Shown: positions 3,001 to 19,050 of the stretch, in pieces
Position numbering within the stretch: the first letter of the stretch is position 1
How the letters are laid out: every line of letters starts with the position of its first letter
IMG/VR virus record: IMGVR_UViG_3300032246_001883
Location: 1-55,595 of that record
Direction: 5' to 3' (one strand)
Origin: a virus
Taxonomy: Duplodnaviria; Caudoviricetes
DNA: 55,595 nucleotides
Translations under genes and position numbers: made by a program
Notes under the pieces: model-generated
Database searches by the model: none
What the model was told of the DNA's origin: nothing
The model's input: only the letters and a program-made list of their open reading frames with translations

Positions 3001-3262
3001 CTGTATTACCAGTTAAACTTAACATATTGGCTGTGAATTGACTCGTATTAACAGGCTGATTCCATTGTATTAACAACTGTACTTGTTGTCCGGCTACTAT
3101 CTGAGCTCCATCAGCCTTACCGTCATAGTTAGATGTAATCACGGCAGTAGGTGGCACAGCAATTACACGTTCCCATCGAGTTGCTGCTGAATTGTAAATA
3201 TATTGTTTATTACCAAGTAACCTAAGTGTACTATTAGCGGCCGGCGATAAATCATATGACAT
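44..3262 (-). CDS. Tail fibre/adhesin-like virion protein with Ig-like (Big_5/SbsA-like) repeats and a Gly-rich C-terminal domain
   Basis: 1072 aa. Three repeats of the pattern LT/LV..P.(D/N)G...L..NT.YY.SIP.GAY.D....SFT; C-terminus with many GGGGG loops; lies in the fibre cluster. Confidence 0.7.
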   Translation of the reverse strand: MSYDLSPAANSTLRLLGNKQYIYNSAATRWERVIAVPPTAVITSNYDGKADGAQIVAGQQVQLLIQWNQPVNTSQFTANMLSLTGNTAALSSFAQDTTDPSLYKANFSFTGALGQVYIPANSVVVNNLKNSVIYSEALAGAYLPYATLRVESYSSQANPVYTFFDPNFSNSVRQFTNNMSGTSFNNVSNRRIKISLINMGANGVAITGTAGLIGSDIVRTSSVFPSPGITQLLVSTSLYTTNNNTTIASATSSVRYADMFINNTYYYLDYLFQLSIPARAYQDISSTIFNVPVSPIYFNRIWYVNNIGIYALMARKSGTNNGVLKIYIDKFGSLVSNVNQSVITLNSGGTLGTLTLTSNTKIDANAMFGNLFVADYTVPAGSTDYTETITIGSNLFTIPPANLSSSTINGIPYTVDPISAGGVLGAQPIYYSAITSSGTSINNNVFRSPVSLTAVDPVDGGTATSGVNLSISLPNRGTFFTNTSVTGIRIYTGNTAANGGNLIYANTTPTRQDGTGLNLNFPINLLSNGSVFTSNTKYYVSIPANQYYDDYGNNSLAYNYSFTMGYFGALTLVSSRPTNGSTDFGATLPFRINLSQDAYSTNTSVKWVLYTGSLGGTVFATGNVSVYNKYVDPENSSNPNTDRAVIIDNYPRLVANTKYYLSIPPGAYSDILHVKNDTFNSSFTTIDQGPLTLTAVSPLDGGTGFNGVDVITLSLNRDAYSTNTSVKWVLYTGSLGGTVFATGSVPSTNRNVSISNYPAMSENTTYYLSIPAGAYTDRLFVDSSAYSFSFTTASASPGDYLYTPSVGYYTTTFKVPGFITSISAVVIAHGGASSGTNSQTYSDDPDYGVYINKYGAPGGGGGGLAYRNNISVTPGEVLTLRMDYYGSVCGIYRNGVYGTPLLEAYSGRYSTFTSDTIGIGGSGGAIDRFIYAGGDGGSGGNMTNRLNTGGSGGGAAGTYYGTGGSGGDGVVSGAGIAGTTGANNSTGGTGASFVIAGQENFTGAGGRGTGSSLYGPDDSRKYYGSGGGGWWNGSYAYDYDTTIKVQPGSGGIRIVWGAGRAFPNTNISTSSS
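1038..1475. repeat. Exact 75-bp direct repeat (1038-1112 and 1401-1475) within the Ig-like repeats
   Basis: Both copies read gttgcaaatacag...gaataagcatct and encode DAYSTNTSVKWVLYTGSLGGTVFAT; offset 363 nt. Confidence 0.9.
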
Positions 3263-6039
3263 TATGGTCTCCCAAATTCAACCCAGCCAGTATTTGCTAC
3301 ACCATTACCAGCTACAAGATACATTGACCAAATTCCTGTTGACGTATCCAACCACGTATCTCCTTCTATTGCATTTTCTGGTGGTGTTGAAGTTAAAGTC
3401 TTAGTAATCCTAAAAACAGTTCCTGAAGTTAAACTTTTTGATAATAAACAAACAACATCAACAATCTCTCCTCCAAAAATTAGAGTTGATGTATTTAGTG
3501 TAACAGTAGTACCATCATTAGCAATATAATTTAATGGGTTTATCAAAAAACCGTTTACGTAAACAGAAACAAGACCTGGAGTATATGTATTTGCTCCAGG
3601 TAAAGTAAATACGTTTTGGTTTGTTGTTGCTATAAATGAAAAAACATTTTGTGATGAGTTTGAAGAAGCTACGGCTGTTGTTTGTGTTGTTCCGTCTGGA
3701 AATACAAAACCAGTACCAGATGCTTTTACGTTAGAAGATATTAAAGTATTATTAGAACTTACATATTGCAAGTTTGGTGTATTTGATAAGTATCCTGTTG
3801 CATCAGCAAATATGATAGAGTTTGCTTGATAACCAAATGAAGAAGCTATTCCAACGCTTGGTGTTAAAGAAACAACATCAACAACTTCTCCTCCAAAAAA
3901 TTGAGTTGATGTTGTATCAAATACAACAGTATTGCCTGTATTAGCGGTATAAGTTTTTGGATTTGAATAAAATCCATTTATATAAACAGAAATAAGATTT
4001 TGTGTATATGTATTTGAACCTGGTAAAGTAAATGTATTTTGACTTGGTGTTGCTATAAATGAAAAAACATTTTGTAACGTATTTAAACCAACAGATAAGT
4101 TAGATATTCCAGATGAACCGCCTGATATAGCAGTGTTAACAACGCTAGTAACTCTACCATAAGTGTCAACAGTAATTACTGGAACATAACTAGTATTACC
4201 ATAAGTTCCTGCTGTCACTATACCTGGTGATAATCCGGCACCACCAGCTGTTGTTTGTACTGTTCCATCTGGAAATATAAATCCAGTAGTTGATTTTATG
4301 TTAGAAGATATTAAAGTATTATTAGAACTTATAAATTGTAAGTTTGAAGTATTTGATAGGTACCCTGTTGTATTAGCAAATATAATAGAATTAGATAAGT
4401 AACCAGATGCAGATACTCCTCCGCCACCGCCACCACTAACTGTTATAGCAGTATTAACAATATTAGTGATTCTACCATTAGCAGCTACAGTAACTACTGG
4501 AACGTATGTAGAGTTACCATAAGTACCGGATGTTATTATTATATTGGTAACATCATTATTGGCTTGATTATATGCTGATTGTGCTAAGTTGTTTGCTATA
4601 TTTGCTTGATTGAATCCAGCTTGTGCTAAAGTATTGGCTGTATTAGCTTGGTTATATGCTGATTGCGCTAAATTGTTTGCTGTATTGGCTTGGTTAAATG
4701 CACCATTAGCCTGATTAAAACTGGCTTGCGCTAAAGTATTAGCCGTATTTGCTTGGTTAAATCCAGCCTGTGCTAAAGTATTAGCCGTATTGGCTTGAGT
4801 AAATCCAGCTTGTGCTAAAGTATTGGCTGTATTTGCTTGATTGTATGAACCATTGGCTTGATTGTATGCAGCTTGCGCTAAGTTGTTTGCTATATTTGCT
4901 TGATTGAATCCAGCTTGTGCTAAAGTATTAGCCGTATTTGCTTGAATAAATGCACCATTAGCTTGGTTATATGCTGATTGTGCTAAAGTATTAGCCGTAT
5001 TGGCTTGAGTAAATCCAGCTTGTGCTAAAGTATTGGCTGTATTTGCTTGGTTGTATGAACCATTAGCCTGATTAAATCCAGCCTGTGCTAATGTTCTTGC
5101 TATTTGGTCTAAAGATCCTTGTGATGCGGATTGTGCTAAATCATATGCAGCCTGTGCTAAAGTATTAGCCGTATTAGCTTGAATAAATGCAGCAGTACCA
5201 ATTGGTTCGTTATTGGCTTGATTGTATGCTGATTGCGCTAAAGTGTTTGCTGTATTAGCTTGAATAAATGCACTATTAGCCTGATTAAATCCAACCTGTG
5301 CTAGAGTGTTGGCTGTATTAGCTTGGTTATATGCACCATTGGCTTGATTGAATCCAGCCTGTGCTAAAGTATTGGCTGTATTGGCTTGATTGTATGAACC
5401 ATTGGCTTGATTAAAACTGGCTTGTGCTAAAGTGTTTGCTGTATTGGCTTTAGTAAATGCAGCAGTACCAATTGGTTCGTTATTGGCTTGATTGTATGCT
5501 GATTGCGCTAGAGTGTTGACTGCATTAGCTTTATCGTATGCTGATTGTGACAATAATCTTGCATATGGATCTAATGATCCTTGTGTTGCAGAAAGCGCTA
5601 AATCATATGCTGTGTTGGCTTTATCAAAAGCTGAATTTACTTTTGCAGCTGTTGATACAGCCAAATTTGCTGAGTTAGCCGCTAATGATGCAGATGTATT
5701 TGCTGATGCTGCCGAATTTGCAGAATTATTTGCAGCTGTATAAGAGTTTGTTGCTATTATTAATGCACTATTGGCTGTATTTAATGCATTTTGAGCAACA
5801 TCGAGACCAGGACTTGAACCAGGAATATACTGTATACTTTGAACTTGTTGTGGTGTTTGTTGATTTACACCTACACCAACTGTTCCAATAGTAACATTAG
5901 GACTTAAACCTGTGTTGTATTGTATTTTTTGAACTTGTTGGGATGTTTGTTGATTTACGCCTATACTAACCGATCCAACAGTTACATTTGTTGTCGGTGT
6001 TTGATTTACGGTTACAACTATATTTCCAACATCGGCCAT
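3262..6039 (-). CDS. Long fibre/whisker protein with an Ala/Asn/Gln coiled-coil repeat shaft
   Basis: 925 aa. Long ANTANTLAQ(S/A)(A/G)(Y/F)NQ repeat tract, TVD.YGR.T fibre motifs, a duplicated QNVFSFIAT...GGE.VDVV domain and a C-terminal GDTWLDT motif. Confidence 0.7.
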   Translation of the reverse strand: MADVGNIVVTVNQTPTTNVTVGSVSIGVNQQTSQQVQKIQYNTGLSPNVTIGTVGVGVNQQTPQQVQSIQYIPGSSPGLDVAQNALNTANSALIIATNSYTAANNSANSAASANTSASLAANSANLAVSTAAKVNSAFDKANTAYDLALSATQGSLDPYARLLSQSAYDKANAVNTLAQSAYNQANNEPIGTAAFTKANTANTLAQASFNQANGSYNQANTANTLAQAGFNQANGAYNQANTANTLAQVGFNQANSAFIQANTANTLAQSAYNQANNEPIGTAAFIQANTANTLAQAAYDLAQSASQGSLDQIARTLAQAGFNQANGSYNQANTANTLAQAGFTQANTANTLAQSAYNQANGAFIQANTANTLAQAGFNQANIANNLAQAAYNQANGSYNQANTANTLAQAGFTQANTANTLAQAGFNQANTANTLAQASFNQANGAFNQANTANNLAQSAYNQANTANTLAQAGFNQANIANNLAQSAYNQANNDVTNIIITSGTYGNSTYVPVVTVAANGRITNIVNTAITVSGGGGGGVSASGYLSNSIIFANTTGYLSNTSNLQFISSNNTLISSNIKSTTGFIFPDGTVQTTAGGAGLSPGIVTAGTYGNTSYVPVITVDTYGRVTSVVNTAISGGSSGISNLSVGLNTLQNVFSFIATPSQNTFTLPGSNTYTQNLISVYINGFYSNPKTYTANTGNTVVFDTTSTQFFGGEVVDVVSLTPSVGIASSFGYQANSIIFADATGYLSNTPNLQYVSSNNTLISSNVKASGTGFVFPDGTTQTTAVASSNSSQNVFSFIATTNQNVFTLPGANTYTPGLVSVYVNGFLINPLNYIANDGTTVTLNTSTLIFGGEIVDVVCLLSKSLTSGTVFRITKTLTSTPPENAIEGDTWLDTSTGIWSMYLVAGNGVANTGWVEFGRP
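4560..5620 (-). repeat. Coding tandem repeats (21/42-nt units; ANTANTLAQAGFNQ)
   Basis: Roughly twenty near-identical tgtgctaaagtatt(a/g)gc(c/t)gtatt-type units; boundaries approximate. Confidence 0.85.
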
Positions 6040-10636: not shown

Positions 10637-12817
10637 TTACAATCCTGTTCCTGATGGTAGTGCTAAGGCACGAATATCAGTTATTATAGGAACAATTGTA
10701 CTATCAGAAGATGACATTACAACCTTGATTGCAAATTGACTAAACGAACTATATTTTTGTCCATTGGTACTAGTATAAGAAATAAAATTATCAGCTTTAT
10801 TTAATGTACCTGGAGCCCATTCAAATTCAATTAAATTTGTTTTTGATTGTGAATATACATTTCCATTCGAAACTTGTGTCATTAATTGCCAAGACATATC
10901 TTCAAAATTATTAGTATCATTACGATTTAATATTTTATAATATACATCTATTCTTGTTCCGAGTGGTTTGTATGCAGTATAGTATACTCTTAAATCTGCA
11001 GAATCATTTTCTGGTGTCAATACTACTTTTTTGGTAAAATATTTTGCAAATGAATTTCCACCTTTTGGTGATGTTTCACCATAAACTACAGCTGTAGCTT
11101 GTGTTGTATTAGCACCAGAAATAGTAATTTTTGGTGATGTAATATATCCTGAACCTGGATATGTTACATAAACAGAAGAAACAACATTAGATGTTCCATT
11201 GTTTGCAATAGTTAATCCAAGTATGGCATTATCAGATCCAACATCTGGTGAAGAAATTGATATACTTGTATTTGTTGGATCATTATAACCAGCACCAATA
11301 TTTGTTAAAGAAACAACATTGTTTTGTATTCCCATATTATTAACAACATTACGAATACTATACATTGTTATACCATCATCTGAAATCATTGGACTTACAT
11401 ATTTATTAGTTGAACTTAGAGAAGCAAACATTGATACTGAATTGTTTATATTTTTTAATAATGCCCTTTGTCCTAGTCCATCACCGAATTCAATATTATC
11501 CGGTGTTGGAGAACCAAATTTACCAGGAAATACTTGGTATGGACCAACCGGAACATTTCCAGCGGCTAGTATGTTTGAATAAGTATAATCAATTTTAGTT
11601 TCGGTCGGTGTAAAATCTGTTGTTGTTAAATTAATCGCATCAGACCAAGTATCACTAATAGTGAAATTACCATATAAATTTGGCATATTGTTTGCGTTCA
11701 ATGAGTATTGAATATCATTTACACCAATTTTTCTGTATGGTAATCCTTTTGGCAAAGAAAATTCAATAGAAGGAGTTTTTGTTATATCAAATATACAGTT
11801 GTCAATCACAAACATTAGATTTTTTGTTTGATCTGCTGTCCAAGTAATTGAATTTTGTGATTCGAATAACGCACCAACATATGGTGAAGCACCAATTTTT
11901 GTTGTGTTTGTTGGATTTGCATCGGTTTTATTAGCTTTTGCCGTTGATGGAACAGCTATCGAATTTTGTTGTGCGTAATAAACTTGATAATCTGGTGTAC
12001 TTGTTTCTAACATAAAAGCATAAAGTACACCAGGTTGAATATAAACGGGTGCATCAAATACAAATTCTGTATAAGTTGAAGAATCTAGATAATGTGGTGC
12101 ACTCGAAGTTATAACTTGACTAGAAGACAAAATGACAGTTGAATTATCCAATTTCACTCCATTTGGATAACCATTTAATGTATTGACAATCGATAATTTA
12201 ACAGGAACTTCTGTTGTTGGTTTGGAATAGAAAAAGACTTTAATTGATTTTAAAAACATTCCATTTGGATAATTATCTTTTTCTATAATAAATGTTTGTG
12301 CAATTGGATCCCTTCTGGTTGTTACTGAGATCGTACTTGATGAAATTAATTGATTTTGTTTTTGATTAACTTGTATAAATGAAGTTGCACTAGAATCAAT
12401 TGATGCTCCAAAATCTAATCTTTGTGAAGTAGTAGATAATCCAGAAGCAGTAAATGTAGCTTGTGCATAAGTTGTGGCTGATGTTGGATCGGTTTCAACA
12501 CTTCTATTATCTACACGAAATACTCTTTGTCCTGTTTGAAAAATACCTGGAGGAACATTAAAAATACCAACAAAATTCCCGCCTTCATCTGTGGATAATC
12601 TTGGTAATGCACTACCACTTTTTATAGAAGCTTGTGTGCCAATAAAGCTATATTGTGAAGTGATAGAACCAACAGCTTCGTTATGCCCCAACGAAATGTC
12701 TACACCGGTGTTGAGTGTAACAATTTTGTTTACTGCATCATAAGCCGTTACAGTTGCTGTATAATTATATAATGATTCAATGAATTCTGACGGTTGTATC
12801 GTATATGTATATGACAT
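10637..12817 (-). CDS. C-terminal part of the VrlC/DUF4815-like large virion protein
   Basis: 726 aa. DPIAQTF, FYSKP, GALFESQNSITWTADQ, AKYFTKKVVL and P.I.DIRALAL motifs usually lie in the C-terminal part of this family's single large protein. Confidence 0.75.
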   Translation of the reverse strand: MSYTYTIQPSEFIESLYNYTATVTAYDAVNKIVTLNTGVDISLGHNEAVGSITSQYSFIGTQASIKSGSALPRLSTDEGGNFVGIFNVPPGIFQTGQRVFRVDNRSVETDPTSATTYAQATFTASGLSTTSQRLDFGASIDSSATSFIQVNQKQNQLISSSTISVTTRRDPIAQTFIIEKDNYPNGMFLKSIKVFFYSKPTTEVPVKLSIVNTLNGYPNGVKLDNSTVILSSSQVITSSAPHYLDSSTYTEFVFDAPVYIQPGVLYAFMLETSTPDYQVYYAQQNSIAVPSTAKANKTDANPTNTTKIGASPYVGALFESQNSITWTADQTKNLMFVIDNCIFDITKTPSIEFSLPKGLPYRKIGVNDIQYSLNANNMPNLYGNFTISDTWSDAINLTTTDFTPTETKIDYTYSNILAAGNVPVGPYQVFPGKFGSPTPDNIEFGDGLGQRALLKNINNSVSMFASLSSTNKYVSPMISDDGITMYSIRNVVNNMGIQNNVVSLTNIGAGYNDPTNTSISISSPDVGSDNAILGLTIANNGTSNVVSSVYVTYPGSGYITSPKITISGANTTQATAVVYGETSPKGGNSFAKYFTKKVVLTPENDSADLRVYYTAYKPLGTRIDVYYKILNRNDTNNFEDMSWQLMTQVSNGNVYSQSKTNLIEFEWAPGTLNKADNFISYTSTNGQKYSSFSQFAIKVVMSSSDSTIVPIITDIRALALPSGTGL

Positions 12818-12836
12818 TTATTTTCCAATTAATTTA

Positions 12837-15800
12837 TTATTTGTTATTGATAACACAAGCAATTTTTCCGACCACTTTAAATAAACCCACCATAGTTTTT
12901 TGCAATATTGGATTCTTATCGTCTTTAAATGATTTAGCCATCAGCAAGTTAACCAATTTTATATTCGATTTACCAAATAGATTATTTATTAGATAAGCAC
13001 CATAAGTTGTATTTTTACCAGATTTAATAAATTTATCAAATAACTCTGGTATACGATCAGACATTATATAATCTTTTTCTACACACAATCTTAAAAGACC
13101 ACCGTCACCAACAATAGATGTTGTTCCATATCCATTAACTATATATGTTCCATCACCATCGGTCCATAAATTATAAACTAATTTACCTTGTGATGAAATA
13201 ACTTTTATTGGTTCAATTTTTTCCATTTTTCCTAACCAAGGATACCATTCATGAATCATCTCAGGATCAACAGCAGATAATTTATTATCAACATATAACG
13301 GATGATTAATTGTTGCAAATGGTTCAAAATCTTTTGATGGTGTATACAATGAAACAAATTGTTCATCTGAAGTTTTTTCAATAAAAGTAACTATATTTAA
13401 TTTGGTTTTGTTTTTGTTCCACACTTTATCACCAATCTTAATGTCCACAATTTTTTTCTTACCATTTAAAGTGTCAACAATAGTTTCTGAAGTAAAACAG
13501 CTCCTTTTACCGCCTCCTCCACCGCTTGGTGCTGGTGGTGGAGGAACATATGTGGCTGTCTGTGTTATATATTCTTGTATAAATTTGCTGGTGATATTGA
13601 TTTTAGCACCAACATAATAGTTAGCAACAGATGATGCATTTTGATCCAGTTTTAATTTAGTTACGCCAGTAAACCATGCACCACCTTTGGGTAAAATAAT
13701 TTCTTGTGTTATAGAATCATAATTTAAGTTTGGAGGACTTGATGATTGAAATACAATAGTTCCGCTTGGATCTTTAATAACTAAAGCGAAACCACCGCCG
13801 CTTGCTGGTGATCCTGTTACACTCCACGCTAAAGTACCATTATTTAAATTAGTTACATTAAAAGTAGTTGAAGTTACGGTTGTTGGACTTGATGATGTTG
13901 CAATTGTAGTTCCATTGGCTGTTACAGTGGCTGTACCAGTAGAAGAACACTGAACGGTATAAGTTCCTATAGATGGTGGTGAATATATAAAACTTGCCGA
14001 ATAAGTTGCCGTACGATTTAGGTTACCCCAAACACCATATTGATTTAAGAATGAACCCCAATCGTGGCTATTATTTACTTTGTAAATTTGTAGATTAGCA
14101 ACATTATTCGCAGTATAACTTCCTCCAACACCAGAGACAACACCTGAAGTTGCAATGGGTACTGCTGTCAAACTTATTGTACCGGAAGCCGTTGAACCTG
14201 TATAAACACCACTCGAATCAAAAGTAGCATTTTGGAATGTAGTTACTGGTACATAGTTTGATGTACCAAGTAAATTTGCAATATATAATCTAACTGATGT
14301 ACTGTTTGGATATTTGTATAATGTAACGACACGAGCTGTTGGATAAAATTTATTATTAAAATAATAACCAATTACATCATCTTCTTTAAATGTGCCAGAA
14401 ACGTTTGTTAATTCAATTGTATTTGGTGATGTTATGTATTGATCAACTCTTACACCATCAAAAAATGCCAAAATGGGACAATTTGTTAATAATCCTTTTG
14501 TTTTAAAAATAATCTGTTGTGGTCTAATATATGGTAATACAGCAATATTTGTTAAATAACCATTATTAATCCCAATTGTAGAGGATATTTGTGAATAACC
14601 AGTAGCTGTAACATTTTGTAATTGACTACCATAAGTTTGTGTGGTTGTAGATACTGTTGTTTCGTTTCCATTAGTTGTTGTAGCACTACTTGTTTTTGTC
14701 TTAGTTGTTCCTGGAATTGTTTGGAAATCACCAGCATTTAAAAGATTTACGCCTCCGTTTTGTTGATATATTTTTAGTGATGGATCTGTAATAAGAATGT
14801 CTGGAGATTCTGTATTGTCAACCCAATTATCCATTGGTGGATTAAGTCTTGCAATACCTTCATATATTGTAACGGCAAATGGATTCAAACTTACTGTGCT
14901 TGATGCAAGTTGTTGAACAACCGCATTTGCTGTTGTATATGGCAGAGTAAAAATATTTGTATTTGTACCAGCAATACTTGCAACTGCATATGTATTGGTT
15001 TGTTTTAATGTACCAAGAGAATTTAATACCGTTGGATTTTGTAATTGATAATTATCAACTATTGTTAGAGGTGTTAATTCTTTTTTTCTTACATTAATTT
15101 TGGCGGAAAAATCAGAATTATACGTATCAGCGGTAGAGTAAGATGAAAAATCATCAACAAGAATACCATTTTTGAAACGATTTAAACCATTTACATCGGG
15201 TACTTGCAAAGCTTGTGCATTCGCTTCTAACAAACTTAATGCAGAATAATATTCAAGATTATTAAGTCTTGTTTGCAAATCAGTAATATCTTGTTTGATC
15301 CAATTTTTATGTAATATTTTTTCAACTGATAGATTTGTAGCAACACCTTTAGTAGTCTCACTTGGAAGGTATGCAGTATATGGATCGTGAATTAAATTGG
15401 CAATCACCAAAGAACCATCGGGTTCGTCAGGATATGTTGGTTTTGTTGAAGGTGTGCCTTTTACAATTTTAAAAGAACGATCTTTTGTTAAAACTAACTT
15501 ATCTTTTCTACCAAGATAATAACTATAATCACTAACATATTGACTTAAATTTTTTGGTATCATAATACCAGTGTCATCACCGACTGCGCCTGGTGTTCCG
15601 GTGTATTCAAATACAAAACCTGTTTGTGCATTTTTTCTAGATGGTCTAAAATCGATACAATCCGTTAAATTATAAGAAACACCTCTTCTACTTGTATACG
15701 ACTGTATTTCTTTATAATTTTCTGGTGAAGATGAATTTGGAGACAAATATGAATTTATATCAAAATAACCATCTCCACCTAGGTGTGAATAGTAATCGTA

Positions 15801-18315: not shown

Positions 18316-19050
18316 TCATAGTTCTTTAATTTTTATTCTTACGGGGTGGTTGATATCTCTTGGAACACTCTTTAAAGTAAACAATGTTCCTGTTAAATTT
18401 ATGTCTTCAATATTCATTTTTATTACAGTAACATTACGACCAATGCGTTTTGCGTATTTCATTGCAATTGTTGGTATAATAACTTCTTCAACAGGAGTAT
18501 AATTAAAGAAATTATTTACTTCTTCAATACTGATTGGGAATTTATTACAATCTTCTACAATATATTCAAAAATTTCTTTACTAAAAAATCCAAGTTCAAC
18601 GCCTTGATAGTATATTGTTTCTTCTTTTGTAAATAACCCCATATCAAATATTGGAAAGTATCTTTCTGGCAACTGATCTGTACGTGTGTCAAATGATGTA
18701 TCAAAGTTTTTTATATAGTCATAAAATCCATGACGAACAAACAATTCAGAGGTATGAAATATTTTTACATATTCAAAATCTTCACTAAATTGTTTTTTGG
18801 CATATTGATATGTTCGCAAAATAGGTAACAATTGACTTTCCCATTTAGAATCAAATGTCTTGGCTTGATTTCTAATAAAAATTACATTTTGTAAATTTGA
18901 AAATCTTTGTTCATCAAAAGTAGTAAATTTTTCACTTATATGAATTGCAATTAATGGTTCAATATCAACATTGAACTTTTTGATATTATTAATTGTATCT
19001 TCAACGCAATCGTTGTTTTCGTGTGCAGTAATGATGAATAGTAATTTCAT
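18316..19050 (-). CDS. Putative glycosyltransferase (GT-A, core-2/I-branching-like)
   Basis: 244 aa. N-terminal LFIITAHE...IAIHIS resembles GT14/Branch starts; late 'VEEVIIPT' resembles the family's (D/E)E...(Q/P)T motif. Confidence 0.45.
   Translation of the reverse strand: MKLLFIITAHENNDCVEDTINNIKKFNVDIEPLIAIHISEKFTTFDEQRFSNLQNVIFIRNQAKTFDSKWESQLLPILRTYQYAKKQFSEDFEYVKIFHTSELFVRHGFYDYIKNFDTSFDTRTDQLPERYFPIFDMGLFTKEETIYYQGVELGFFSKEIFEYIVEDCNKFPISIEEVNNFFNYTPVEEVIIPTIAMKYAKRIGRNVTVIKMNIEDINLTGTLFTLKSVPRDINHPVRIKIKEL

Follow-up and report, generated by a model that had tools for sequence, protein, structure and literature searches.

The closest described counterparts of the element analysed here are the Hog domains of Hedgehog-type proteins, in which a Hint domain plus a sterol recognition region (SRR) or adduct recognition region (ARR) stands behind a variable cargo (so defined in the available parts of PMC2362128 and PMC7906309). 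The Hedgehog active site comprises C1, D46, T69, H72 and C143, and in the portion of PMC12054796 available to us D46 activates the cholesterol hydroxyl while C143 forms a branched thioester. Autoprocessing of this type is regarded as eukaryotic, its origin being open, in the available text of Burglin 2008 (PMC2362128). Related systems include the bacterial intein-like (BIL) domains, among them BIL2 of Tetrahymena BUBL1, which transfers its N-flank to the Lys amine of another protein as an isopeptide (section 2.4 of PMC8616854, available in part), and the split inteins and 'fractured genes' of marine phage metagenomes (Dassa et al. 2009, PMC2677866, available in part). Here we analyse a 55,595-nucleotide (55.6-kb) fragment of a marine, pelagimyophage-like virus, IMG/VR record IMGVR_UViG_3300032246_001883, referred to below as the window. 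Its gene for the baseplate protein VrlC is divided into two open reading frames (ORFs), and the last 220 residues of the upstream product are a Hint domain without the Asn that ends inteins, followed in the same chain by a helical bundle.

A Hint domain and helical tail at the break in VrlC

The two ORFs, P0001 and P0002, are both on the minus strand, in different reading frames and with 19 nt between them. Toward its C-terminus P0001 runs through a 310-residue variable region, the opening strands of a beta module of modest size, 14 further residues, a linker, Cys1586, the Hint domain and the tail. The parts of the locus are as follows.

18254 to 12837, minus strand: P0001, the VrlC N-fragment with linker, Hint domain and tail, 1805 residues (stop codon at 12837-12839)
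13587 to 13622, minus strand: N-terminal half of the split beta module, P0001 1545-1556, NYYVGAKINITS, assigned by alignment to the unsplit relative L090
13545 to 13586, minus strand: loop remnant ahead of the linker, P0001 1557-1570; both the size and the make-up of this loop are variable where the gene is unsplit
13500 to 13544, minus strand: Pro/Gly linker PPPPAPSGGGGGKRS, P0001 1571-1585, ending at the predicted scissile bond between Ser1585 and Cys1586
13116 to 13499, minus strand: Hint domain, P0001 1586-1713, 128 residues, assigned by Pfam, profile, AlphaFold2 and Foldseek
12840 to 13115, minus strand: helical tail, P0001 1714-1805, 92 residues, five helices packed on the Hint domain in the AlphaFold2 model
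12818 to 12836, minus strand: 19-nt spacer, with a GGAAAA element just 5' of the P0002 ATG
12817 to 10637, minus strand: P0002, the VrlC C-fragment, 726 residues, assigned by its match to phrog_358 1276-1633 and by BLASTP to the VrlC of phage HTVC008M
12713 to 12763, minus strand: C-terminal half of the split module, P0002 19-35, YTATVTAYDAVNKIVTL, assigned by alignment to L090

The key residues of the Hint domain, with their cassette positions, are Cys1586 (1), Glu1626 (41), Thr1648 (63), His1651 (66), Asp1701 (116) and Ser1713 (128, where inteins have their Asn). Block B reads T1648-I-N-H1651, and the domain ends NGYGTTS at 1713, without His-Asn. Four Hint-clan families of Pfam match the 220-residue cassette, each under its curated cut-off: PT-HINT PF07591 (20.6 bits against 27.7, E 5.5e-4), Hint_2 PF13403 (19.2 against 28.4), Hint PF01079 (15.1 against 29.7) and Vint PF14623 (12.0 against 27). 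A profile of 50 relatives matches PI-SceI, BIL2 and Sonic hedgehog chains in the PDB (E 8.6e-6 to 2.6e-4). AlphaFold2 models the cassette with a predicted local distance difference test (pLDDT) of 97 and a predicted template modelling score (pTM) of 0.91, as strands up to residue 127 followed by five helices at 134-219. Foldseek with this model returns 21 PDB matches at E<=1e-3, and those listed are all inteins, BIL, Vint or Hedgehog domains; the top one is BIL2 6y75 (E 2.2e-6, TM 0.43/0.61), with Vint, the gp41-1 intein and Hedgehog 1at0 next. With this fold, a block A Cys1 and the TxxH of block B, the domain is a member of the Hint superfamily.

The tail gave no PDB match of its own by Foldseek and none in Pfam, and in a search of the protein atlas with just the tail no score exceeded 0.87, under the 0.9 level taken as more than a lead. 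BFVD holds many viral proteins called 'Hint domain containing', which align over the Hint part alone (TMq <= 0.48), and phmmer with P0005 against the PDB returned nothing useful. PHROG matches of the cassette come from intein-bearing families only, and neither Pfam nor PHROG detects a nuclease or recombinase domain in it.

The position of the break was located with L090, a close relative 51% identical to P0002 in which the beta module is in a single piece. P0001 1529-1556 aligns to L090 1265-1292 with a score of 62 (reached by 0 of 1000 shuffles), and P0002 19-119 to L090 1334-1442 with a score of 242 (0 of 200 shuffles); in L090 a loop of 41 residues separates the two stretches. By these alignments the gene break falls in a loop of the module, which would be a hypervariable surface loop of VrlC. 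An earlier note on this DNA had described a gene split in mid-module, a P0001 that ends in a linker, Cys1, an intact TxxH, no His-Asn, GTTS and a 92-residue tail, and an uninterrupted copy of the module earlier in the same protein. The split is borne out on both sides of the break by L090, the ending is as read from the ORF, and the internal copy, at P0001 499-521, also aligns to L090 1335-1357 (a score reached by 2 of 1000 shuffles). A short duplication at the break (P0001 1557-1570 against P0002 10-26) was considered and is not significant (194/1000 and 285/1000 shuffles), with weak DNA identity; the alignments show no duplication at the other split sites.

That the two ORFs are VrlC is evident from profile matches and from synteny within the baseplate module. 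DUF4815 (PF16075) scores 188 bits in P0001 against a cut-off of 30, and phrog_358 is matched serially, by P0001 on profile positions 5-1263 (E 1e-226) and by P0002 on 1276-1633 (E 3.5e-88). In Pelagibacter phage HTVC008M (Kyanoviridae), the nearest cultured relative, VrlC is a single 2001-residue coding sequence, to which BLASTP aligns P0001 1-1275 (on residues 1-1363) and P0002 93-720 (on 1395-1999). The collinearity with unsplit homologues that the earlier note had supposed is therefore confirmed through both phrog_358 and HTVC008M. In the window as in HTVC008M, VrlC is followed by a 72-residue gene, and baseplate wedge genes adjoin. The available part of a pelagimyophage study (PMC7029224) counts VrlC among the core proteins of the baseplate, where it stands in for T4 gp7. 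The split arrangement recurs on independent contigs, which excludes an assembly accident, and read-through from P0001 into P0002 is ruled out because P0002 is in the other frame. For annotation, the two ORFs are to be treated as one functional VrlC and not as a pseudogene.

A widespread cassette with a Hedgehog-type active site

Hint domain plus tail form a widespread C-terminal unit with a Hedgehog-type active site, reported here as new. An exhaustive HMMER search returned 215 clusters at E<=1e-3, of which 137 reach E<=1e-10 and 89 reach E<=1e-30, and only 19 of the 150 listed clusters are VrlC-like. The cassette is terminal: among the listed representatives, the match covers the tail in 102, and 101 of these end no more than 35 residues past it. 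No source checked gives these proteins a functional name, and tblastn found no match among 50,697 records of cultured phages. Our literature search, which covered papers apart from their supplementary files, found no description of such a cassette; additional files 16-17 of PMC2362128, on bacterial proteins with C-terminal Hint-like domains, may hold relatives.

Conservation was counted over 164 distinct cassettes, namely those whose alignment starts at Cys1. Cys1, Phe2, His66 and Asp116 are present in all 164, Thr63 in 156 (Ser in the other 8) and Glu41 in 152 (Asp in one more). The position that is penultimate in inteins is Thr in 96 and His in 44. At position 128, the site of the intein terminal Asn, Ser is found in 146, Thr in 11, Cys in 3 and Asn in just 2.

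The conserved Glu is what ties the cassette to Hedgehog. For the family member P0104 the best PDB match is Drosophila Hedgehog 1at0 (E 2.8e-4), with FIEKN of P0104 on FMDRN of Hedgehog, so that Glu196 is aligned with D46; the D46H mutant 6tyy has His in this column. Glu196 of P0104 corresponds to Glu41 of the window cassette, that is, to Glu1626 of P0001. Canonical Hint domains located upstream in the same proteins, 54 of 56 of which end in His-Asn, carry Glu in the D46 column in just 8 of 56 cases, compared with 152 of 164 tail-bearing cassettes, which ties the acid to those Hints that lack the Asn and bear a tail. By eye only, GTYIVNGYGTTS of the cassette can be set alongside GTIVVNSVAASC of HhC as printed in the available part of PMC12054796, which would place Ser128 (Ser1713) at C143; Ser, Thr or Cys is found at position 128 in 160 of 164 cassettes, with the equivalence to C143 a by-eye judgement. 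As far as alignment can tell, the cassette has two features of a Hog domain, a C-terminal Asn-less Hint behind variable cargo and an acid at the D46 position. The earlier note is supported in that the Hint is of the Hedgehog type, which cleaves at its N-terminal side, and has a helical region behind it.

The likeness to Hog domains extends to the Cys-Phe start, the TxxH and an extension of about 90 helical residues packed on the Hint; by eye, it may also include the Ser/Thr/Cys where C143 seems to be. The cassette differs in having Glu for Asp and Ser for Cys143, in a tail without detectable similarity to the SRR, and in its setting, which is a bacteriophage and cytoplasmic rather than secretory. 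To our knowledge, sterol is not available in the likely hosts. BIL domains, including BIL2, likewise comprise a Hint in non-conserved proteins whose N-flank is cleaved or transferred without splicing, but BIL2 keeps its C-terminal Asn (6y75 is a C1A-N143A mutant), has no helical tail and has Val at the conserved-Glu position. In the Foldseek search two BIL structures resemble the cassette. Pretoxin HINT (PF07591) gives the best Pfam coverage, cassette 7-124 on profile 1-125 of 137, and also has a Hint near the C-terminus, ahead of a module that is variable or exchangeable. Its score of 20.6 bits, however, is below 27.7, and in our family the module after the Hint is constant, the cargo precedes the Hint and no toxin domain was recognised. 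The split inteins and fractured genes, as far as the available text describes them, share a phage gene in two parts with Hint sequence at the break. Here, in contrast, the whole Hint is on the N-fragment, P0002 has no C-intein, and the ORFs are separated by just 19 nt, with no homing endonuclease gene between them.

Two intein assignments were tried and rejected. A class 1 or split intein does not fit a Hint that ends Thr-Ser and continues for 92 residues to a stop, with Asn in 2 of 164 cassettes and no Hint segment in P0002. An in-frame intein insertion at a conserved site does not fit a stop codon, a change of frame in the next ORF and a hypervariable loop. The absence of a terminal Asn, together with the lack of a conserved +1 nucleophile, excludes trans-splicing.

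Cassettes were found at 80 IMG/VR loci, placed by BLASTP to HTVC008M VrlC; these counts take in near-identical contigs. Four loci have the VrlC break near 1264/1322 (site A), 11 near 1364/1389 (site B, the site of the window) with 2 more running off the contig, and 13 at 1478 (site C, where the C-part starts MKPIGQTF). In another 8 a VrlC N-part of about 1200 residues is followed by a small ORF, and 42 show no VrlC similarity. Among the carriers, the unrelated virion family phrog_24848 is split likewise at L066 (4729-7952), the N part matching profile 3-394 and the next ORF 388-795, whereas gp5-like hub N-domains (phrog_694/430, profile about 12-130) end in the cassette at L039 (4894-6663) and L072 (1319-2737) with no second half adjoining. 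The phrog_24848 split was also seen at L067, L071, L075, L083 and L084; as at L066, the two ORFs overlap (ATGA) and the Hint cassette is at the break. At L018, L037, L050 and L051 the cassette ORF is only 394-449 residues long and begins near VrlC 1314-1330; in these phages VrlC may be in three pieces.

Upstream of Cys1, the 150 listed representatives have a Gly/Ser/Pro-rich linker (67), a hydrophobic stretch (13), a canonical Hint (11) or something else (27), with 32 unassessable. In the 13 hydrophobic cases among the 118 assessable (for example P0014, P0021 and P0041; L022 and L026) a transmembrane-like stretch, often behind poly-Gly, runs right up to Cys1, and cleavage there would make it the C-terminus of the carrier. 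P0006, which shares 55% identity with P0001 over the VrlC part and has the break at the same site, carries four tandem canonical Hints (in the region of residues 1540-2397) directly ahead of its terminal cassette; upstream tandem canonical Hints also occur in L038, L043, L055-L057 and L064. These canonical Hints start Cys-Phe and end His-Asn-Lys (HN in 54 of 56, Lys next in 50 of 56), and the conserved +1 Lys recalls the Lys-directed transfer by BIL2.

Seven site-B relatives are 52-79% identical to the window in the Hint, 58-72% in the core of VrlC-N and 37-55% in the tail. To judge from these identities, the cassette is under purifying selection and diverges in step with VrlC, which points to long vertical inheritance with a constrained tail, although one stop codon could delete the cassette. 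Contexts cluster on the cassette tree (19 changes against a shuffled mean of 42.8). Together with the conserved catalytic set, these patterns mark the cassette as a working module, inherited for the most part vertically.

Exchangeable modules in the VrlC loop

We compared the 80 nearest relatives of P0002 (48-74% identity), two of which were unassessable. Of the remaining 78, 38 are unsplit and 40 are split at the same loop. The earlier note had asked whether split homologues always carry the Hint, which is not the case: Hint plus tail is present in 10 of the 40, a cassette of the type 'KIICTKLxELG...' (CTKL) in 12 (one divergent), one of the CCVVATA type in 7 and Peptidase_S74 in 3, and 8 have a short tail only. 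Thus 30 of 40 lack the Hint and 8 lack any cassette, and split VrlC, to judge from these genomes, functions without either.

All split forms fall in one 52-row clade of the C-part tree (support 100), with nine unsplit rows inside it. Cassette types are intermixed among close relatives: the tree requires 22 changes, where 7 is the minimum and shuffling gives a mean of 40.4. The unsplit genes within the clade have loops of very different lengths, and one of them, L108, retains an in-frame Pro/Gly linker. The VrlC loop is therefore a hot spot where repeated gene breakage is combined with exchangeable C-terminal modules.

Peptidase_S74 is a known self-cleaving chaperone of phage fibres and spikes that uses a Ser-Lys dyad. 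It is found at exactly this position in L134 (2362-2961) and in the identical L147 and L165, with 25.2 bits against a cut-off of 22 and a coiled-coil-like stretch before it. The Hint cassette would likewise be a self-cleaving C-terminal domain on a virion protein; the fold and chemistry of S74 are unrelated, and a chaperone role for the Hint cassette would be an analogy only. A further relative, L160, ends where the S74 domain would start, as if the processed form were encoded directly.

The CTKL cassette, seen in L089 (3529-4008), in L092 and at 11 loci among the nearest relatives of P0002, takes the place of the Hint cassette at the same VrlC loop and also on other carriers. Its family comprises 57 proteins (P0260-P0316), always with the cassette C-terminal, behind Gly-rich linkers or canonical Hints. 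The model (pLDDT 88) has six helices, the last of them moderately hydrophobic (KD19 1.5). Nothing in the PDB resembles the CTKL cassette (best E 0.87), no family in Pfam or PHROG matches it, and homology between it and the Hint tail was rejected (hhalign probability 8.5%; phmmer found nothing). The third type, 'CCVVATA...LHRGYH...SIPNS...', ends the upstream ORF in L098, L115, L116, L129, L130, L154 and L166; neither it nor the cassette of L105 has a Pfam family.

Possible fates of the junction at Cys1586

We tentatively favour, with slightly less than even confidence, a Hog-like autoprocessing cassette that would cut between Ser1585 and Cys1586, after which the VrlC halves would assemble non-covalently. 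What we observe is the anatomy, the fold, the conserved catalytic positions and the distribution; cleavage, the nucleophile and any role of the tail before release are what we infer. After folding, Cys1586 would attack the Ser1585 carbonyl in an N-to-S acyl shift, helped by Thr1648 and His1651, and the acyl group may move on to Ser1713. Glu1626 would then act as general base while water, in the simplest case, resolves the (thio)ester, releasing VrlC-N (1-1585, with the Pro/Gly linker at its end) from the cassette. VrlC-N and P0002 would finally assemble non-covalently and complement the beta module divided by the break. The loop is alternatively continuous or fitted with exchangeable cassettes, including a self-cleaving S74, and for this reason the Hint cassette is read as a self-removing C-terminal module; S74 at the same place in relatives backs this by analogy and is not proof. 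Complex prediction with P0001 1470-1585 and P0002 1-110 gave a score of 0.60 (runs 0.59, 0.60 and 0.70; best control 0.00) with contact agreement between runs of at least 63% and a partner pLDDT of at least 50. The pass mark is reached by 58 of 80 solved complexes and by 2 of 110 mismatched pairs, and a score of 0.60 or less is found for only 7 of those 80 and for both passing mismatches, so the prediction hints at complementation of the two halves.

Several points weigh against this proposal. The case is built from sequence and models, and the complementation score is low, with pLDDT near 50. The conserved Glu (152/164), the Ser/Thr/Cys (160/164) and a 92-residue tail exceed what plain hydrolysis needs and point toward a chosen nucleophile. 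With 8 loci split without a cassette, VrlC appears to need neither the cassette nor its removal, so that a chaperone-like role would not be essential. CTKL and CCVVATA cassettes stand at the same site without a recognisable protease.

The alternatives differ mainly in what becomes of the thioester. In a Hedgehog-type transfer, the tail would hold a lipid, glycan or small molecule whose hydroxyl or amine, activated by Glu1626, would resolve the Ser1585 (thio)ester in place of water; VrlC-N would then bear an adduct on its C-terminus, where the flexible linker ends. We consider this possible, if rather unlikely. It would account for the best PDB match of P0104 and for a Glu aligned with the cholesterol-activating D46 that marks tail-bearing cassettes and is rare in the canonical Hints upstream, for the Ser/Thr/Cys that by eye occupies the place of C143, and for the overall architecture of variable cargo, CF start, Asn-less Hint and helical extension; the hydrophobic stretches just before Cys1 in 13 of 118 representatives would also suit it. 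A general base would serve hydrolysis equally well, however, the tail resembles neither the SRR nor a lipid-binding fold (Foldseek aligned the Hint part only, and the protein atlas reached at most 0.87), the analysis brought up no candidate nucleophile, and C143 is placed by eye. A bolder form of the idea, which we regard as unlikely, is a phage Hog-type transferase (Cys1, Ser at C143, Glu at D46) whose tail would select a non-protein nucleophile, for example a membrane lipid or envelope glycan, to receive the C-termini of virion proteins (VrlC, the gp5-like hub and others); such transfer could occur during assembly, or on host contact if the ester survives in the virion. The earlier note had instead put forward a cleave-and-ligate system, in which the N-terminus of P0002 attacks the thioester and a single VrlC chain is restored, with a lipid or small molecule, or water, as its other options. 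The latter remain candidates, while ligation to the N-terminal Ser of the partner finds no support and is in our view highly improbable. It is chemically possible, as the isopeptide formed by BIL2, also the best Foldseek match, makes plain; both chain ends should be near each other in a complemented module, and the linker kept in frame by L108 suggests that a joined product is tolerable. Nothing here calls for it, though. In 29 split VrlC pairs (the window and 28 cassette loci) residue 2 of the partner, expected to be Ser, Cys or Thr, is so in only 6 (Ala 10, Lys 8, Ser 4, Pro 4, Thr 2, Gly 1), and with Lys the initiator Met would stay. The 30 split relatives without Hint, including the 8 without a cassette, share the same partner N-terminal pattern, and the cassette ends gp5-like proteins that have no adjoining partner. 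Partner N-termini are wholly different between the three split sites and the tail is conserved, which means that the tail cannot be reading them. A residue 2 that is not conserved and homologues in two genes with or without the Hint are both outcomes that the earlier note had named as refuting its idea.

Two further explanations assign the phage no gain from the cassette, or no cleavage at all. The cassette might be a selfish or neutral gene-fracturing element: linker, Hint, tail, stop and restart would enter loops that tolerate them through recombination, and cleavage would only limit the damage. That it breaks VrlC at three or more sites and also turns up in unrelated genes is in keeping with this, as are unsplit relatives within the split clade, the swapping of cassettes between close relatives, and arrays of up to four canonical Hints, as in P0006, such as proliferating elements form. 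We nevertheless judge it distinctly unlikely, given a cassette with no nuclease or recombinase domain, contexts that cluster on its tree, and a constrained tail in a module diverging in step with VrlC. Alternatively, VrlC-N could keep its Hint and tail, which would be displayed at the tip of the flexible linker or serve as an anchor there. The CTKL cassette, with its hydrophobic last helix and no recognisable protease, suggests that some cassettes at this site may be retained; for the Hint cassette this is very unlikely, since Cys1, His66 and Asp116, invariant in 164 of 164, are hard to explain without chemistry at the junction.

A large family of phage virion proteins with the active-site layout of Hedgehog offers a testable prokaryotic-virus system for the origin of Hog domains. 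If Hog-type transfer were true, no earlier case of Hedgehog-style adduct transfer would be known from outside eukaryotes, and the Hog domain would have a candidate source. For protein engineering, the cassette may provide a compact Hint that cleaves at its N-terminal side and brings its own regulatory domain, and the VrlC hot spot bears on how the host-contact apparatus diversifies in T4-like marine phages.

The remainder of the window is briefly described. It has a CheckV completeness of 33 and low G+C, contains no tRNA genes, and its left half is filled by a T4-type baseplate module. Two ORFs of the baseplate and fibre module, at 18316-19050 (minus strand, 244 residues) and 3262-6039 (minus strand, 925 residues), have no PHROG family at E<=1e-5. 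At 13700-14100 (P0001 about 1385-1520) there is a domain of about 190 residues, WGSFLNQYGVWG..., which is not in HTVC008M or L090. Pfam finds nothing in the window copy, and P0262, a relative with the same region, has a precomputed match to PA14 (PF07691).

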